From Candidatus Poribacteria bacterium (lineage in GTDB: Bacteria > Poribacteria > WGA-4E > UBA9662), in the NCBI GenBank assembly GCA_036339735.1, contig JAYZAL010000042.1, positions 1 to 54,893 on the forward strand: a DNA stretch of 54,893 bases. The letters are read 5' to 3'. The notes under the pieces are model-generated. The model was not told the origin of the DNA and made no database searches. It saw only the letters and a list, made by a program, of their open reading frames with translations. Below, in pieces: positions 131-53,682 of this stretch; the first letter of the stretch is position 1; the number at the start of each line of letters is the position of its first letter. Made by a program: the position numbers and the translations under genes.

Positions 131-910
131 TCATTTTTTTAATTTTGCCCAGGTCGTTGCCAGTTTGTCTATCTGATCTACAGACAACAGAAGCTGGAGC
201 CCGGAGTTCATAACTGATACAATTTCTTTCTCGTCCAATGCACGATTCCACATCGCGACATCATCCATTATTCCATTCCAGGTAAAATTACGACCGTCAT
301 TAAGTTCCCCAACCCAAACGGGAGATTTATCGTCTTTTAAAACCTCTTTTGCTGGGTGATTGGTTTCAGCTTCCATTTTGCCGTTTATAAAAAGTTTAGC
401 TTTTCCGCCACCCTCAAAAGTATAAACCACGTGGTACCAATTTCCATTTTCTAGGGCCGTCGAAGAGCTTATTTCACCTTCGCTATTCACTCGAGCGTAT
501 ACCTTCTGTCCTGTCCAGGTAAACAAGTTATAGCAATCACCATCCTTATGAGCGAATCTTTTAGAGACAATTGACATACCGTCTGCACCTTTGATTCCAT
601 TAGGCTTAACCCAAGCAGCGATAGTTAGTTCTTTCATTCCAGAAAGTTTATCCACAGATGGAACTTCTACTACATTGTTTCCTTTTCCGTTGAATCGAAG
701 AGCCTTACCAAATTTTCCGTTTACATGTTCTAATTTTCCATTTTTCTTTGGCTTAGCAGGTGATTCGGAATGATCTACTGGATTGCCTGCCTCCTCAAAA
801 GGAAGATATAGAATTAGACCTCGATTAATCGCAGCTTCCGAAGTCGTCAAGACCAAAAACCCAAGTATAAAAAATGAAATTAGAAATAGTTTACCGACAT
901 GTATCTTCAT
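131..910 (-). CDS. Secreted LamG-like jelly-roll (concanavalin A-like) domain protein with short C-terminal KL-x3-W-x2-LK tag
   Basis: LamG_3-type motifs (GKFGKALRFNG, LTIAAWVKP, WYHVVYTF, WNGIMDDVAMWNRAL). Start moved from 955 to ATG 910 (MKIHVGKLFLISFFILG...SEA, signal-peptide-like) because AAGGAGA lies just upstream. Ends SVDQIDKLATTWAKLKK. Confidence 0.9.
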   Translation of the reverse strand: MKIHVGKLFLISFFILGFLVLTTSEAAINRGLILYLPFEEAGNPVDHSESPAKPKKNGKLEHVNGKFGKALRFNGKGNNVVEVPSVDKLSGMKELTIAAWVKPNGIKGADGMSIVSKRFAHKDGDCYNLFTWTGQKVYARVNSEGEISSSTALENGNWYHVVYTFEGGGKAKLFINGKMEAETNHPAKEVLKDDKSPVWVGELNDGRNFTWNGIMDDVAMWNRALDEKEIVSVMNSGLQLLLSVDQIDKLATTWAKLKK

Positions 911-1036
911 GCTTATCTCCTTATAAGTACAGAAGTAAATTGATAGAGCTGGCATATCATTGTGAGACCTAATTGGTGTAATGTCATCGTATCCAAATCG
1001 CCTGCGAAATTTCTCCTATTGTAATCAGATAAATTG

Positions 1037-13705: not shown

Positions 13706-14605
13706 CTAGAAGTCAGAGGTCTTGGGTATCTTTGAGGAAGGTCGGACCACACGAAACCCGATAGAATGGCTGGAGTCAAGTGGGAAAAATTTGAATCTCA
13801 AGGCCGAACGAAGAAAAACCCGTCCACTATCCCAAGCCCCACCGCGAATTACTCGAGGGTATAGAATATCACGATGACGCAGGTTGATTGGATTCTGGCT
13901 GGGTCCGTTATGGTAAAAATCCGCGTCGTATTCATCCATACACCACTCCCAAACATTACCTGCCATATCTTCTAACCCTTCGGCAGTTGATCCTTTTGGG
14001 AATTGCCCAACAGGCATTGGACCGTCATATCTTCTGGCAAAATTGGCATGTTGACGAGATCGAGGTGAGCCGTTTCCCCAAGGGTAGGTATTCCTACGTT
14101 TGCCACGAGCAGCACGCTCCCATTGTGCTTCGGTAGGCAGGCTACCTCCGATCCACTCAGCAAACGCTTGTGCATCAAACCAAGTGACACCAACAACAGG
14201 TAATTGCGAACCAGCAAACTTTTCCTCTTGCCAAATATCCTGTCCTTGATTGCCTCGAGGTTTAGGTCGTCTATTTTCTTCCACAAATAACTTATATTGA
14301 GCATTAGTAATTTCATGCTTAGAAATATAATAAGTTGGTAGGTAAACCCGGTGTAGTGGCTTTTCAGAATCAAATGCGTGTTGTAAGTCCACCATAGCTC
14401 CCCGAAAACTAGCTTCCAGATCCAGAGTAGAAACTTCTTCAGTCTCGGAGCCCATCAGGAAATTTCCGGCAGGAATCTCAATCCATTCTATTGAATTCAA
14501 CACTTCGTGGATAGTTGTGTTAATCTGGGTGGAATCCGTCGCACCCAGATTAACACAAAACCAAAATGGAACTAATCCAAACAGAACCGTCAAGGAATAG
14601 TTCAT
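13706..14605 (-). CDS. Secreted FGE-sulfatase (SUMF1/EgtB/PvdO-like) domain protein, lacking the FGE catalytic cysteines
   Basis: IPAGNFLMGS, EITNAQY, LPTEAQWERAARG, DMAGNVWEWC, RGGAW, IGFRVV; no cysteine pair after RGG. Confidence 0.9.
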   Translation of the reverse strand: MNYSLTVLFGLVPFWFCVNLGATDSTQINTTIHEVLNSIEWIEIPAGNFLMGSETEEVSTLDLEASFRGAMVDLQHAFDSEKPLHRVYLPTYYISKHEITNAQYKLFVEENRRPKPRGNQGQDIWQEEKFAGSQLPVVGVTWFDAQAFAEWIGGSLPTEAQWERAARGKRRNTYPWGNGSPRSRQHANFARRYDGPMPVGQFPKGSTAEGLEDMAGNVWEWCMDEYDADFYHNGPSQNPINLRHRDILYPRVIRGGAWDSGRVFLRSALRFKFFPLDSSHSIGFRVVRPSSKIPKTSDF

Positions 14606-14613
14606 TTAATCTA

Positions 14614-15402
14614 CTAATCTGATTGGAGTCGTCCTTTGATGGCTCCCCAAGAGACTGGTAATTTTTGTTTCGGCAAGACTACAAATGGTTCTAGGTTATC
14701 CCTGAAATATTCATATTGAATATCTCCTTTCCCTACGGCCTCGCAATTACCAGCGTAGATGCCAATTTCGATCGGGTCTTTCAAATCCATGGTTTTGGTT
14801 TCTTGAATTTCATTCCACTCATCACCTTCTTTTTCTTTCCACCATGTGGTAAAGGTTTTGCCTTTCCGAGCTAACCGGATATAGACATCCATCGGCTTTC
14901 CAGCTTTAGGCTTAAAACCAGGAGCTTCGTTTTGTATCCCTCCTTCTCTAATTTGGAATTGGAGGATGGCATCACCGCCGCGGCCCCAAAATTTCATAGT
15001 AACCCACTCAGGCTTTCCACCTTTACCCAGAGTCGTTTGAGATAGTGCTACGACACCAGAAACAATACTTTGGGTAGCATATTCCATATAAACGTGCGTC
15101 TCAACATCGAAATCTCCACTATGTTCCTGGTAAAGTCGATTGGTGGTATCCGCGTTCCATAGATTTCGATTCGGTGCAGCGTCTATGTGAAGCCAACCTT
15201 CTTTAGTTTTTCCAACATCCCATTTTTCAGGTTCTGTACCTTCGTCCTTATTTCTGTCTTTCCATTTCCACTCAGGATTTTGCAATTTATTCCCATCAAA
15301 AGGATCGCCTAAAGACTTGGCCATCAAGCTTGGAGCCACCAAACAAAGAAGACAAACCACAAATATCGCTGAGATTTTCATAGCGATTTTTCCAATAAAC
15401 AA
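14614..15402 (-). CDS. Secreted beta-sandwich (concanavalin/DUF1349-like) protein with C-terminal KL-x3-W-x2-IK tag
   Basis: GGAGG 7 nt before a TTG start; signal peptide; GDFDVETHV, YIRLARKGKTFTTWW and IEIGIYAG resemble DUF1349-type folds; ends VVLPKQKLPVSWGAIKGRLQSD. Confidence 0.75.
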   Translation of the reverse strand: MFIGKIAMKISAIFVVCLLCLVAPSLMAKSLGDPFDGNKLQNPEWKWKDRNKDEGTEPEKWDVGKTKEGWLHIDAAPNRNLWNADTTNRLYQEHSGDFDVETHVYMEYATQSIVSGVVALSQTTLGKGGKPEWVTMKFWGRGGDAILQFQIREGGIQNEAPGFKPKAGKPMDVYIRLARKGKTFTTWWKEKEGDEWNEIQETKTMDLKDPIEIGIYAGNCEAVGKGDIQYEYFRDNLEPFVVLPKQKLPVSWGAIKGRLQSD

Positions 15403-16047: not shown

Positions 16048-17472
16048 TTACTTCAGGATTACCATTTTTCTGGTTTTAATATAATTACCCGCTTGTAACT
16101 GATAGAAGTAAATACCATTAGCCGCTACTTCGCCTTTATCTGTTTCTCCATTCCAGTAGGCCGACCGGCCTGAAGTTAAATATCTACCGGCCGTTACCAT
16201 GCCTAGTTCCAGTTGTCGAATCAATTGACTCTTAACATCATAGATACGGATGATTACCTCTGTGTCTTGACCTAATTCAAAAGGTATCCACGTATCAGGG
16301 TTAAAAGGATTAGGATAATTAGCCAACAGTTGCGTTGTCGTCGGTAATCTTTCTAGCAGAACGGATTGTAACCATCTTAATACTACCTCTTCGGCAACTG
16401 AGCGTTGTGAACTGACTAACAGTTGATCCACCACAAAAGCTAGATCTCGCTTTTGCTGAGTAGTTAGCATAATCTCGGAGGCCGTCGACGGCGAAACTAA
16501 TAATTGACCAAAACTACCAGCGATTATTACCAGATCAAAGATATTGACCAGATTATCTCCATTTACATCGCCAACCAAGTCAGTTCCCATTTTTCTAAAT
16601 GAACCAACTGCTATCACTAAGTCAAAGATGTTGACTATACCATCTTCGTTAATATCACCGATTAACGCTCCCACCTGTTTGGTTCTAACACTTGATACTG
16701 TTCGAAATCCAGATAAGCTATATCTAACCGATGGGGCATGGTAACTGCGGTGAGTTAGTCGCAGGGTCTTCTTATAATTATTCCAAGATCCACCCCGCAA
16801 TACTCTTATTTCGCCGGTATTTGGTCCTGTTGGGTTACTTGCTGGCGAGCTTTCATAGTAGCCTTTATCATACCAATCAGCACACCATTCCCATACATTT
16901 CCGACCATATCGTATAAACCATACCCATTAGGTTTAAAACTACCTACTGGTGAACAAAGGTCCCACTTATCTTTACCGCCAGTTCCAGAATAGTTAGCGT
17001 AATCACGTGCAGCATCCCAATTATCTCCCCATGGATACTGTTTACCGACGAGACGACCCCGGCACGCATACTCCCACTCAGCTTCGGTTGGCAAACGCTT
17101 ACCCGCCCATCGAGCATAGGCACTGGCGTCATCCCAATCCAGTCGGACCATCGGATAATCATCTGCTGGCGAATACTCCGCTACCTTACTCCAGAGATGT
17201 GCCGGATAATCATAACCGCTCTGATTGATAAATTGCCTGAACTGACCTACGGTTACCTGATGTTTGTCCATGTAGAACGAATCTAATTCGACTCTATGTA
17301 CAGGACGTTCGCTTATATCCCCGTCGTTCAAATGATCGCCCATCTCAAATGCCCCGGATGGTATCAAAACCATTTCTGCTCCATCCTTCGGCCAAGTGAT
17401 TTGTTGCTGGCCTGTGACAAATAATGAGAAGGAAAGTAACAAAAATAGGGACTGAAAAAATAAGATTTTCAT
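16048..17472 (-). CDS. Secreted FGE-sulfatase-domain protein with dockerin-like repeat and C-terminal FlgD-Ig/T9SS type A-like sorting domain
   Basis: Signal peptide; KDGAEMVLIP, RLPTEAEWEYACRG, RVLRGGSW; duplicated GDINEDGIVNIFDLV / GDVNGDNLVNIFDLV; NYPNPFNPDTWIPF...WNG...GIYFYQLQAG...TRKMVILK. Confidence 0.92.
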   Translation of the reverse strand: MKILFFQSLFLLLSFSLFVTGQQQITWPKDGAEMVLIPSGAFEMGDHLNDGDISERPVHRVELDSFYMDKHQVTVGQFRQFINQSGYDYPAHLWSKVAEYSPADDYPMVRLDWDDASAYARWAGKRLPTEAEWEYACRGRLVGKQYPWGDNWDAARDYANYSGTGGKDKWDLCSPVGSFKPNGYGLYDMVGNVWEWCADWYDKGYYESSPASNPTGPNTGEIRVLRGGSWNNYKKTLRLTHRSYHAPSVRYSLSGFRTVSSVRTKQVGALIGDINEDGIVNIFDLVIAVGSFRKMGTDLVGDVNGDNLVNIFDLVIIAGSFGQLLVSPSTASEIMLTTQQKRDLAFVVDQLLVSSQRSVAEEVVLRWLQSVLLERLPTTTQLLANYPNPFNPDTWIPFELGQDTEVIIRIYDVKSQLIRQLELGMVTAGRYLTSGRSAYWNGETDKGEVAANGIYFYQLQAGNYIKTRKMVILK

Positions 17473-52767: not shown

Positions 52768-52887
52768 CGCTTTGTACACAAATGGGTAGACGAATCGTAT
52801 GTTATTACCTGTCAGATACAATAGGACAACACTGATGGTAAACGATACAAATTGTACAAAATAAAAAAACGGAGTACTGTACTGGTC

Positions 52888-53682
52888 ATGGGTATGTATA
52901 AATTCTCAATCTCGTTGTTATCGTGTTTTATTATTTGTTTATGTCTTTCTTTGCCGAGTTTCTCTGCGGGATACGATGAGAAAACAGTGGTTGGACAATG
53001 GCTTTTTGACGACGAAGGAGAGAACGCTATTGATTCCTCTGGCAATGGACATGACGGCCAAATCAAGGGTGGGAATAATCGTGTTGATGGTAAGTTTGGT
53101 ACAGCCTTACAAGTTTCGGGTAATTGGGTGATGGTGCCGCCGGATGATAAATTAAAACTGACTGCATACACCGTTACTCTTTGGCTAAATACAAAAAGCG
53201 GTTGTGCCGACTGGTGTGGAATCCTATCAAAATCTATGGACAATCCAACTAGAACCTATTGTATGTATATTGATGCCAGAACTGGTGTAGCCGGCATGTC
53301 CATTGGTAACAAAAAAGCTGGCAAATGGAGTGACGTCAGTGGAAAAACCCAAATTAACAAAGGAAAATGGACTCACGTTGCCATCAGTTATGATGAAAAA
53401 GAGCAGGTGCAACGTATTTATACCAATGGGATACTAGAGGGTGAAGCTGAAGTTAAACATGACTTGCCACAAAATGACGCCAATCTAGTTTTCATGGCTT
53501 GGCATCATCCGGGTGGTAATGCTGGCATAACCGGTATGCTTGATGAAATTGGTCTTTTCAACACAGTTTTGGATGATGCTGTCATTAAAACTATTCATGA
53601 CAAGGGATTAGGAGAATCAATGGCTGTCGATCCAAAGGCAAAACTAGCCACCAAATGGAGTAAAATAAAGAACTCACCTTAA
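52888..53682 (+). CDS. Secreted LamG-like jelly-roll protein with C-terminal KL-x3-W-x2-IK tag
   Basis: VGQWLFDD, DSSGNGHDG, DGKFGTAL, WTHVAISYD, GMLDEIGLFNTVL; signal peptide ending SFSA; ends AVDPKAKLATKWSKIKNSP. Start ATG 52888 or 52894 (track start 52852). Confidence 0.92.
   Translation: MGMYKFSISLLSCFIICLCLSLPSFSAGYDEKTVVGQWLFDDEGENAIDSSGNGHDGQIKGGNNRVDGKFGTALQVSGNWVMVPPDDKLKLTAYTVTLWLNTKSGCADWCGILSKSMDNPTRTYCMYIDARTGVAGMSIGNKKAGKWSDVSGKTQINKGKWTHVAISYDEKEQVQRIYTNGILEGEAEVKHDLPQNDANLVFMAWHHPGGNAGITGMLDEIGLFNTVLDDAVIKTIHDKGLGESMAVDPKAKLATKWSKIKNSP

Follow-up and report, generated by a model that had tools for sequence, protein, structure and literature searches.

The 54,893-nucleotide contig of Candidatus Poribacteria bacterium analysed here as a whole, and called the window below, encodes three exported proteins that share a short peptide at their C-terminal ends. 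This peptide, designated the tag, is a self-contained linear element of about 17 residues (17-24 with the residues that trail it), which occurs on exported proteins of different folds, was matched in every Poribacteria genome sampled and, in some larger proteins, is found directly ahead of a type IX secretion system (T9SS) C-terminal domain (CTD). The interpretation preferred here, with a probability of about 0.45, is that the tag may serve for docking or retention at the mature C-terminus of its carriers and may be tied to the T9SS attachment pathway. The tag seems to be undescribed, as no curated model matches it and no paper describing it was found in a literature search that left supplementary files aside. 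The window is the entire contig JAYZAL010000042.1 (C42) of the assembly GCA_036339735.1 (G000; 4.32 Mb, 107 contigs, 40.6% G+C).

Occurrence, carriers and conservation of the tag

The first tagged protein of the window (131..955, minus strand) consists of a signal peptide, a Laminin_G_3 body (Pfam 2.6e-26) and the C-terminal tag SVDQIDKLATTWAKLKK (134..184, minus strand), which scores 23.6 bits against the hidden Markov model (HMM) of the tails introduced below, with one residue after its conserved Lys. Homologues of this protein begin at its second Met and the probable true start is therefore the ATG at 910. The second protein (14614..15402, minus strand) has a signal peptide, a beta-sandwich body with a weak match to DUF1349 (Pfam 3.8e-05, under the gathering cut-off) and the C-terminal end VVLPKQKLPVSWGAIKGRLQSD, comprising the tag VVLPKQKLPVSWGAIK (14617..14682, minus strand; 22.7 bits) and then the six residues GRLQSD. 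The third (52852..53682, plus strand) has a signal peptide, a Laminin_G_3 domain (Pfam 4.4e-19) and the C-terminal end AVDPKAKLATKWSKIKNSP, in which the tag AVDPKAKLATKWSKIK (53623..53679, plus strand; 29.2 bits) is followed by the three residues NSP.

All three open reading frames (ORFs) and their shared ends were found as claimed in a preliminary description of this DNA, the pattern common to them being V-[DE]-P-x2-K-L-x-T-x-W-[GAS]-x-[IL]-K, followed by 1-7 residues. Some details of that description required correction. The tail that it had placed at 131-184 is present, but the span takes in the stop codon, the tail proper being 134-184; similarly, the motif lies in the C-terminal zone but does not form the last residues, being trailed across the genome by 0-7 residues (mode 3, a single case of 13) that are short and variable. 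Its view of the tail as a portable module holds across folds genome-wide, but is not evident from the window, because all three bodies there are concanavalin-like, DUF1349 belonging to what we take to be the same concanavalin-like superfold as LamG.

The census of the tag was made on the 8,287 ORFs of at least 60 residues of G000 (1,633,527 residues). A loose pattern, L-x3-W-x2-[ILVM]-K, gave 64 matches within 12 residues of the C-terminus and 28 elsewhere, where about 2 C-terminal matches are expected from the internal rate; a stricter pattern gave 60 matches at the C-terminus, a further one 13 residues short of the end and none deeper inside, in agreement with the strictly C-terminal location anticipated earlier. 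The tail HMM (19 columns, built from the tails) identified 89 ORFs with the end of the match at most 13 residues from the stop. Outside this set, a relaxed C-terminal search added seven diverged exported members and nine other, chance-like matches, one of which was examined and found to be a protein of 309 residues without a signal peptide and without a regulator domain. The tail consensus reads [LFT]-[AS]-V-[DE]-P-x-x-K-L-[ATS]-[TVI]-x-W-[GAS]-x-[IL]-[KR], its final Lys/Arg being the last residue of the protein in only one of 95 tails and followed by 1-13 residues in the other 94.

The tagged ORFs of 150 residues or more are 196-346 residues long (median 261). A signal-peptide-like N-terminus was detected in 81 of these 86 ORFs as against 279 of 1,311 (21%) background ORFs of 190-350 residues; the test used is crude, and the N-termini of the five tagged ORFs missed by it resemble signal peptides by eye. 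The proposed co-occurrence with Sec signal peptides is thus borne out. Among the 89 tagged ORFs, Laminin_G_3 bodies are found in 38, 3keto-disac_hyd (DUF1080) is the best match in six, DUF1349 matches in three (every one under the cut-off), and CBM9 and F5/8 type C in two each, while HmuY, cohesin, a PD40 propeller (with a weak tail) and a DUF3108-like domain occur in single ORFs; 31 show no Pfam family at E<=0.01. In addition, a diverged tagged member of 530 residues contains two cohesin stretches. The tail is portable between folds. That it forms an integral part of one fold is ruled out, as at least nine Pfam families precede it and it is modelled with low confidence next to confidently modelled bodies.

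The structure of the first window protein was predicted by AlphaFold from a 50-row alignment with a mean predicted local distance difference test (pLDDT) value of 88.7, the LamG body exceeding 90, whereas the tail (residues 246-258) appears as a low-confidence helix (pLDDT about 50-55) that is not packed on the body. In the alignment of 50 LamG homologues, with a mean column identity of 29%, the tail Trp is nevertheless among only three invariant columns, and conservation reaches 90% or more for the tail V, K and K, which indicates that the tail is under strong constraint. Long LamG homologues carried no internal tags (0/11) in a separate search, which was not designed for junction forms. The last 20 residues of the tagged proteins have a median net charge of +3, and the highest mean Kyte-Doolittle value over 15 residues within the last 35 residues is 1.98 at most (median 0.48; 86 proteins), with no hydrophobic segment. 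The hydrophobic moment of the tails equals that of their shuffled versions (0.31 and 0.28, respectively, as a helix; 0.29 and 0.28 as a strand), and an amphipathic-helix anchor is not supported. Of the earlier characterisation of the tail as short, basic, amphipathic and devoid of a transmembrane helix, the basic character and the lack of such a helix hold, while the amphipathic character is not supported. Low model confidence, high conservation and lack of amphipathicity together favour a linear motif that a partner recognises over a structural element or a generic binder of membranes.

The tail HMM, with which the phylum Poribacteria was searched, matched in all 41 relatives (14-146 matches each at E<=0.01) and in 151 of 151 sampled genomes (9 families, 22 genera), with at most 57 candidates per genome scored in the larger scan. 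When 185,579 species genomes were scanned with an exact degenerate DNA pattern that encodes V-D-P-x2-K-L-x-T-T-W-G-x-I-K, at least 136 stretches matched, whereas about 0.003 would be expected by chance. Among the 80 matches listed, 77 are titled Candidatus or uncultured Poribacteria, and the other three ('uncultured bacterium') come from genomes with 29-79 tags each. A profile of 60 tails gave 107 matches among 5.8 billion proteins, the tail being C-terminal in all of them, and all seven matches that carry an organism name are Candidatus Poribacteria. The tag is, as far as seen, confined to the phylum Poribacteria. The lineage specificity suggested in the preliminary description is upheld by these data, while the similar tails that it mentioned on proteins related to the Fibrobacteres-Chlorobi-Bacteroidetes group were not seen among the DNA-pattern matches listed or the protein-profile matches.

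Association of the tag with a T9SS-like pathway

To judge from its genes, the phylum Poribacteria carries a T9SS-like pathway. The type-A CTD model has 42 matches in G000, on open frames of 82-7,432 residues (median 1,278), and type-A CTDs are present in 101 of 101 sampled Poribacteria genomes. A PorV-like barrel is matched strongly in 41 of 41 genomes, as a single copy in 37, and 40 of 41 have 2-4 matches each to the PorU-like C25 peptidase domain, for the most part on open frames about 1,650-2,500 residues in length. Bacteroidota generally have a single, shorter PorU. The PorU-like matches form anciently diverged groups, the two main ones being 36-41% identical; those of G000 are located by their C25 domain matches at C38:117621-123827 and at about 26.8-33 kb of C16, and one PorU-like C25 protein examined carries a CTD of its own. 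An SprA-like frame of 2,176 residues in G000 contains four collinear SprA pieces, under the cut-off. As the GldM and GldN models match nothing in G000 and the PorP/SprF model gives a weak match only, the pathway is called T9SS-like only. No paper ascribing a T9SS to Poribacteria was found; the co-mention in one paper concerns Bacteroidetes symbionts.

The association of the tag with this pathway is seen in proteins in which the motif is joined to a CTD. A DNA pattern encoding W-[GA]-x-[hydrophobic]-K, 1-10 codons and N-Y-P-N-P-F was searched for in 101 genomes with the backwards pattern as control, and was found at 50 places in 38 genomes, which represent 6 of 18 genera and extend to deep branches (two families that fall outside the main order), while the control gave none in all 101 genomes. 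The identical length of 51 nucleotides was observed at 48 of the 50 places. The motif stands directly ahead of the start of a canonical CTD in all ten junction loci that were fetched, as exemplified by AVEPTGKQATTWGRIK, followed by six residues and NYPNPF, the CTD being complete in nine and the frame ending early in L203. Junction proteins are larger than the tag-only proteins, with bodies that read by eye as WD40-like, FG-GAP-like or other. In G000, there is one degenerate junction with the same six-residue spacing and Phe replacing Trp, and 41 of its 42 CTD proteins are without the tag. When a junction C-terminus was modelled by AlphaFold on an alignment of only 10 rows, which is shallow, the pLDDT was about 90 for the CTD and below 50 for the tag; packing of the tag onto the CTD in cis is not seen in this model.

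The position of the junction tag corresponds to the region in which processing of T9SS cargo would be expected. In Prevotella intermedia, the measured sites at which PorU cuts mark the N-terminal border of the CTD and precede motif B by 6-11 residues when the CTD is short and by 19-30 when it is long (PMC11969387). With motif B mapped, by our own reading, onto the I-Y-x-x-x-G strand of the poribacterial CTD, the cut is by analogy expected within a dozen residues starting just after the tag Lys. Processed junction cargo would thus end in the tag and a few residues, just as the tag-only proteins do. The machinery reading the tag had been regarded as not identifiable; the presence of a T9SS-like pathway in the genome and across the phylum, with the motif fused ahead of CTDs, now provides a candidate pathway, albeit without a reader protein.

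A T9SS cargo without the tag is encoded close to the second tagged protein. It (16048..17472, minus strand) comprises a signal peptide, an FGE-sulfatase domain (Pfam 6.4e-68), a helical pre-CTD module and a type-A CTD (about 16057-16317, minus strand; TIGR04183 29.8 bits, with a Pfam FlgD_ig match). The tagged gene is flanked on its other side by a further exported FGE-sulfatase-domain protein (13706-14605, minus strand). The FGE-sulfatase superfamily also includes GldK/PorK, a component of the T9SS. Inspection by eye of the CTD proteins of G000 revealed in about 14 of 42, including 16048-17472, a conserved helical module of about 50 residues that ends in L-P-x-x-T-x-L-L just before NYPNPF; this module would represent another type of element preceding the CTD, as an alternative to the tag.

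Proposed role of the tag and alternative explanations

In the mechanism proposed, Poribacteria place the tag on Sec-exported proteins, mostly small, single-domain and lectin-like, while on larger junction cargo the removal of the CTD would leave a mature end consisting of the tag and a few residues. The tag would then keep exported proteins at the envelope or surface of the cell through its binding to a shared candidate partner, which would belong to the T9SS attachment step or act after it. This docking or retention role is favoured because processed junction cargo would end as the tag-only proteins do. We infer the surface location and docking function of the tag and any part played by PorU-like or PorV-like proteins. 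Two tagged cohesin-only proteins of G000 (C104:131203-132243 and, on the minus strand, C91:3754-5346) and a tagged HmuY homologue, which by eye has no lipobox, are of interest here. The characterised relatives of the cohesin-only and HmuY-like proteins are anchored at the cell surface, and the tagged ones would by analogy lend circumstantial support to anchoring. Dockerin-like D-x-N-x-D-G motifs were noticed by eye in several CTD proteins of G000; the tagged cohesins together with these proteins suggest a cohesin-dockerin network at the cell surface.

Several observations weigh against docking or retention through the T9SS attachment pathway. No partner protein for the tag was identified, and GldM and GldN matches are lacking in G000, as mentioned above. 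The junction form is rare, with 0-5 cases per genome as against tens of CTD proteins, and its pattern was unmatched in 63 of 101 genomes, G000 included; junction tags are also diverged, scoring 3-17 bits against the stand-alone tail HMM and often missing the Leu. The placement of the cut in the poribacterial CTD rests on analogy with another phylum. As the tag-only proteins have no CTD, their crossing of the outer membrane is unexplained, and they could remain in the periplasm. The tag may also occur outside Poribacteria, the phylum on which the HMM was run. Further, a dedicated neighbouring machinery was looked for and none was found, since no gene family adjoins the tagged genes at more than about twice the expectation. 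Families recurring within 4 kb of tagged genes include PhyH (20 near, 10.9 expected), sulfatase (13 and 6.8), ASPIC (7 and 2.3) and an OPT-like transporter (8 and 4.0), among others, and the roughly two-fold enrichment fits general catabolic islands. Large paralogous expansions are seen in G000 by BLAST clustering with one seed each, comprising about 91 PhyH-like, 92 Gfo/Idh/MocA-like, 57 sulfatase-like, 42 FGE-sulfatase-like, 33 OPT-like transporter and 19 ASPIC/FG-GAP ORFs.

Other explanations were weighed against the same evidence. The tag could be a sortase-type signal, read by a PorU-like C25 transpeptidase for which the trailing residues or the CTD would be the leaving group, with a covalent link to a surface glycolipid as in Porphyromonas. 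The tag of the junction proteins does end at the expected PorU-type cleavage point (PMC11969387), its trailing residues are short and variable with a mode of 3, and, with 2-4 PorU-like matches in 40 of 41 genomes, one paralogue could serve the tag. However, the cargo on which PorU is described to act carries a CTD and has already been translocated, and its action in P. gingivalis is described as independent of sequence (PMC4804311); tag-only proteins lack the CTD that would deliver them to the enzyme, and the 41 CTD proteins of G000 without the tag (of 42) indicate that it is not needed for CTD cleavage. A sortase-type signal is on balance unlikely, and catalysis on the tag by a PorU-like enzyme is putative. 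That the tag alone acts as a minimal outer-membrane translocation signal, by which small proteins would enter the T9SS-like translocon or a different secretion system, is very improbable, even though it is coupled to Sec signal peptides, adjoins some CTDs and co-occurs with the T9SS-like pathway throughout the phylum. The CTD is stated to be necessary and sufficient for T9SS transport and the known signals are folded domains, of about 100 residues in type A and 150-235 in type B (PMC12618676); moreover, tag and CTD would be redundant in junction proteins if the tag sufficed.

An invariant Trp flanked by Lys, a median net charge of +3 and the lack of a partner would suit a generic basic or Trp-containing tail sticking to anionic membrane or lipopolysaccharide with no dedicated partner. 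Such a tail is, however, hardly to be expected here, as shuffling the tails does not lower their hydrophobic moment appreciably and the conservation of the V, K, L, beta-branched, W, small, I/L and K positions is, in our judgement, tighter than a membrane binder needs. The junction architecture also raises the idea that tag-only genes arose by truncation just past the tag, leaving a remnant of lost CTDs with no sorting role, or that the tag is an element for oligomerisation, stability or proteolytic turnover, its weak AlphaFold helix perhaps pairing with other copies. A leftover would neither stay near-invariant on 14-146 matches per genome, in 151 of 151 genomes of 22 genera, nor be among the three invariant columns of a family of 29% identity, and the absence of any sorting role is accordingly given very little weight.

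A bolder form of the proposal, considered quite unlikely, is that the tag serves as a CTD-independent ticket to T9SS surface attachment. Small proteins exported otherwise would be captured by their tag and fixed, non-covalently or by a PorU-like sortase paralogue, beside T9SS cargo whose tag is uncovered by the cutting of the CTD. If true, the tag would represent a new class of bacterial surface-anchoring signal, and 'secretion' and 'targeting' in the T9SS would be separable sequence elements.

If about 4,000 genes are assumed for the genome (an estimate from its size), roughly 2% of the genes of an uncultured and ecologically important sponge and seawater phylum bear the tag as one address label. 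The tag is also of practical use as a marker when the exported or surface proteome is to be predicted from a Poribacteria genome. If it docks lectin-like proteins at the surface, it would define how Poribacteria build a glycan-binding coat. Its fixed position ahead of CTDs leads to the hypothesis that targeting information of T9SS cargo can lie outside the CTD and can work without it, and the proposed role, if true, would extend T9SS-type biology beyond Bacteroidota.

Comparison with known sorting systems

The preliminary description had proposed that the tag is an uncharacterised sorting or anchoring signal, and its absence from the curated sorting-signal models is in line with this. No sorting-signal model of NCBIfam matched the whole proteins of the window, and when 60 tails were compared with NCBIfam and Pfam, no model was matched by more than one of them, the single matches being noise. 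The closest association is with the T9SS type-A CTD (TIGR04183 / Por_Secre_tail / PF18962; FlgD_ig-like), which, like the tag, is C-terminal on Sec-exported proteins and phylum-wide here. The CTD is, however, an Ig-like sandwich of about 70-100 residues, found mostly on long open frames (median 1,278 residues), whereas the tag, of 17-24 residues, is predicted by AlphaFold to be unstructured and without strands and lies mostly on proteins of 196-346 residues. None of the 60 tails matched a type-A CTD model in NCBIfam or Pfam at E<=1, nor did the three window proteins, and the tag lacks the folded beta-sandwich of about 60-100 residues with motifs B, D and E that defines the CTD class.

The signals of the LPXTG/sortase, PEP-CTERM/exosortase and GlyGly-CTERM/rhombosortase systems resemble the tag in being short conserved C-terminal motifs on unrelated exported proteins of one lineage. 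These signals are tripartite, with a motif, a transmembrane helix and a basic cluster, whereas the tag has no hydrophobic helix and no NCBIfam match, and no sortase-type gene adjoins the tagged genes here. The distinction drawn earlier between the tag and LPxTG, PEP-CTERM and GlyGly-CTERM signals is sustained by the absence of a hydrophobic segment from the last 35 residues in 86 proteins. The GlyGly-CTERM signal is described as marking secreted proteins that remain on the surface (10.64898/2026.02.05.703148).

The tag likewise differs from signals that lie at or near the C-terminus in other export routes, namely the beta-signal, the type I secretion signal and the Lpp-type attachment site. 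With the outer-membrane beta-signal, a beta-barrel protein terminates in an aromatic residue, while tagged proteins have variable, mostly polar or basic ends and soluble beta-sandwich bodies. Type I secretion signals lie in the last 50 or so residues of proteins without a Sec signal peptide, whereas 81 of 86 tagged proteins have a signal-peptide-like N-terminus. Lpp-type attachment to peptidoglycan uses a reactive Lys with which the protein ends, a position held by the conserved Lys/Arg in only 1 of 95 tails.

Finally, the dockerin of the dockerin-cohesin system is, like the tag, a common terminal module on diverse binding and catalytic proteins, and the tag could similarly dock to a shared scaffold. 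Dockerins fold into a module of about 60-70 residues that binds calcium through a duplicated loop-helix, whereas the tag is a linear peptide, and none of the 60 tails matches the Pfam dockerin. The cohesin side of the system is represented in G000, where two tagged proteins carry cohesins themselves.

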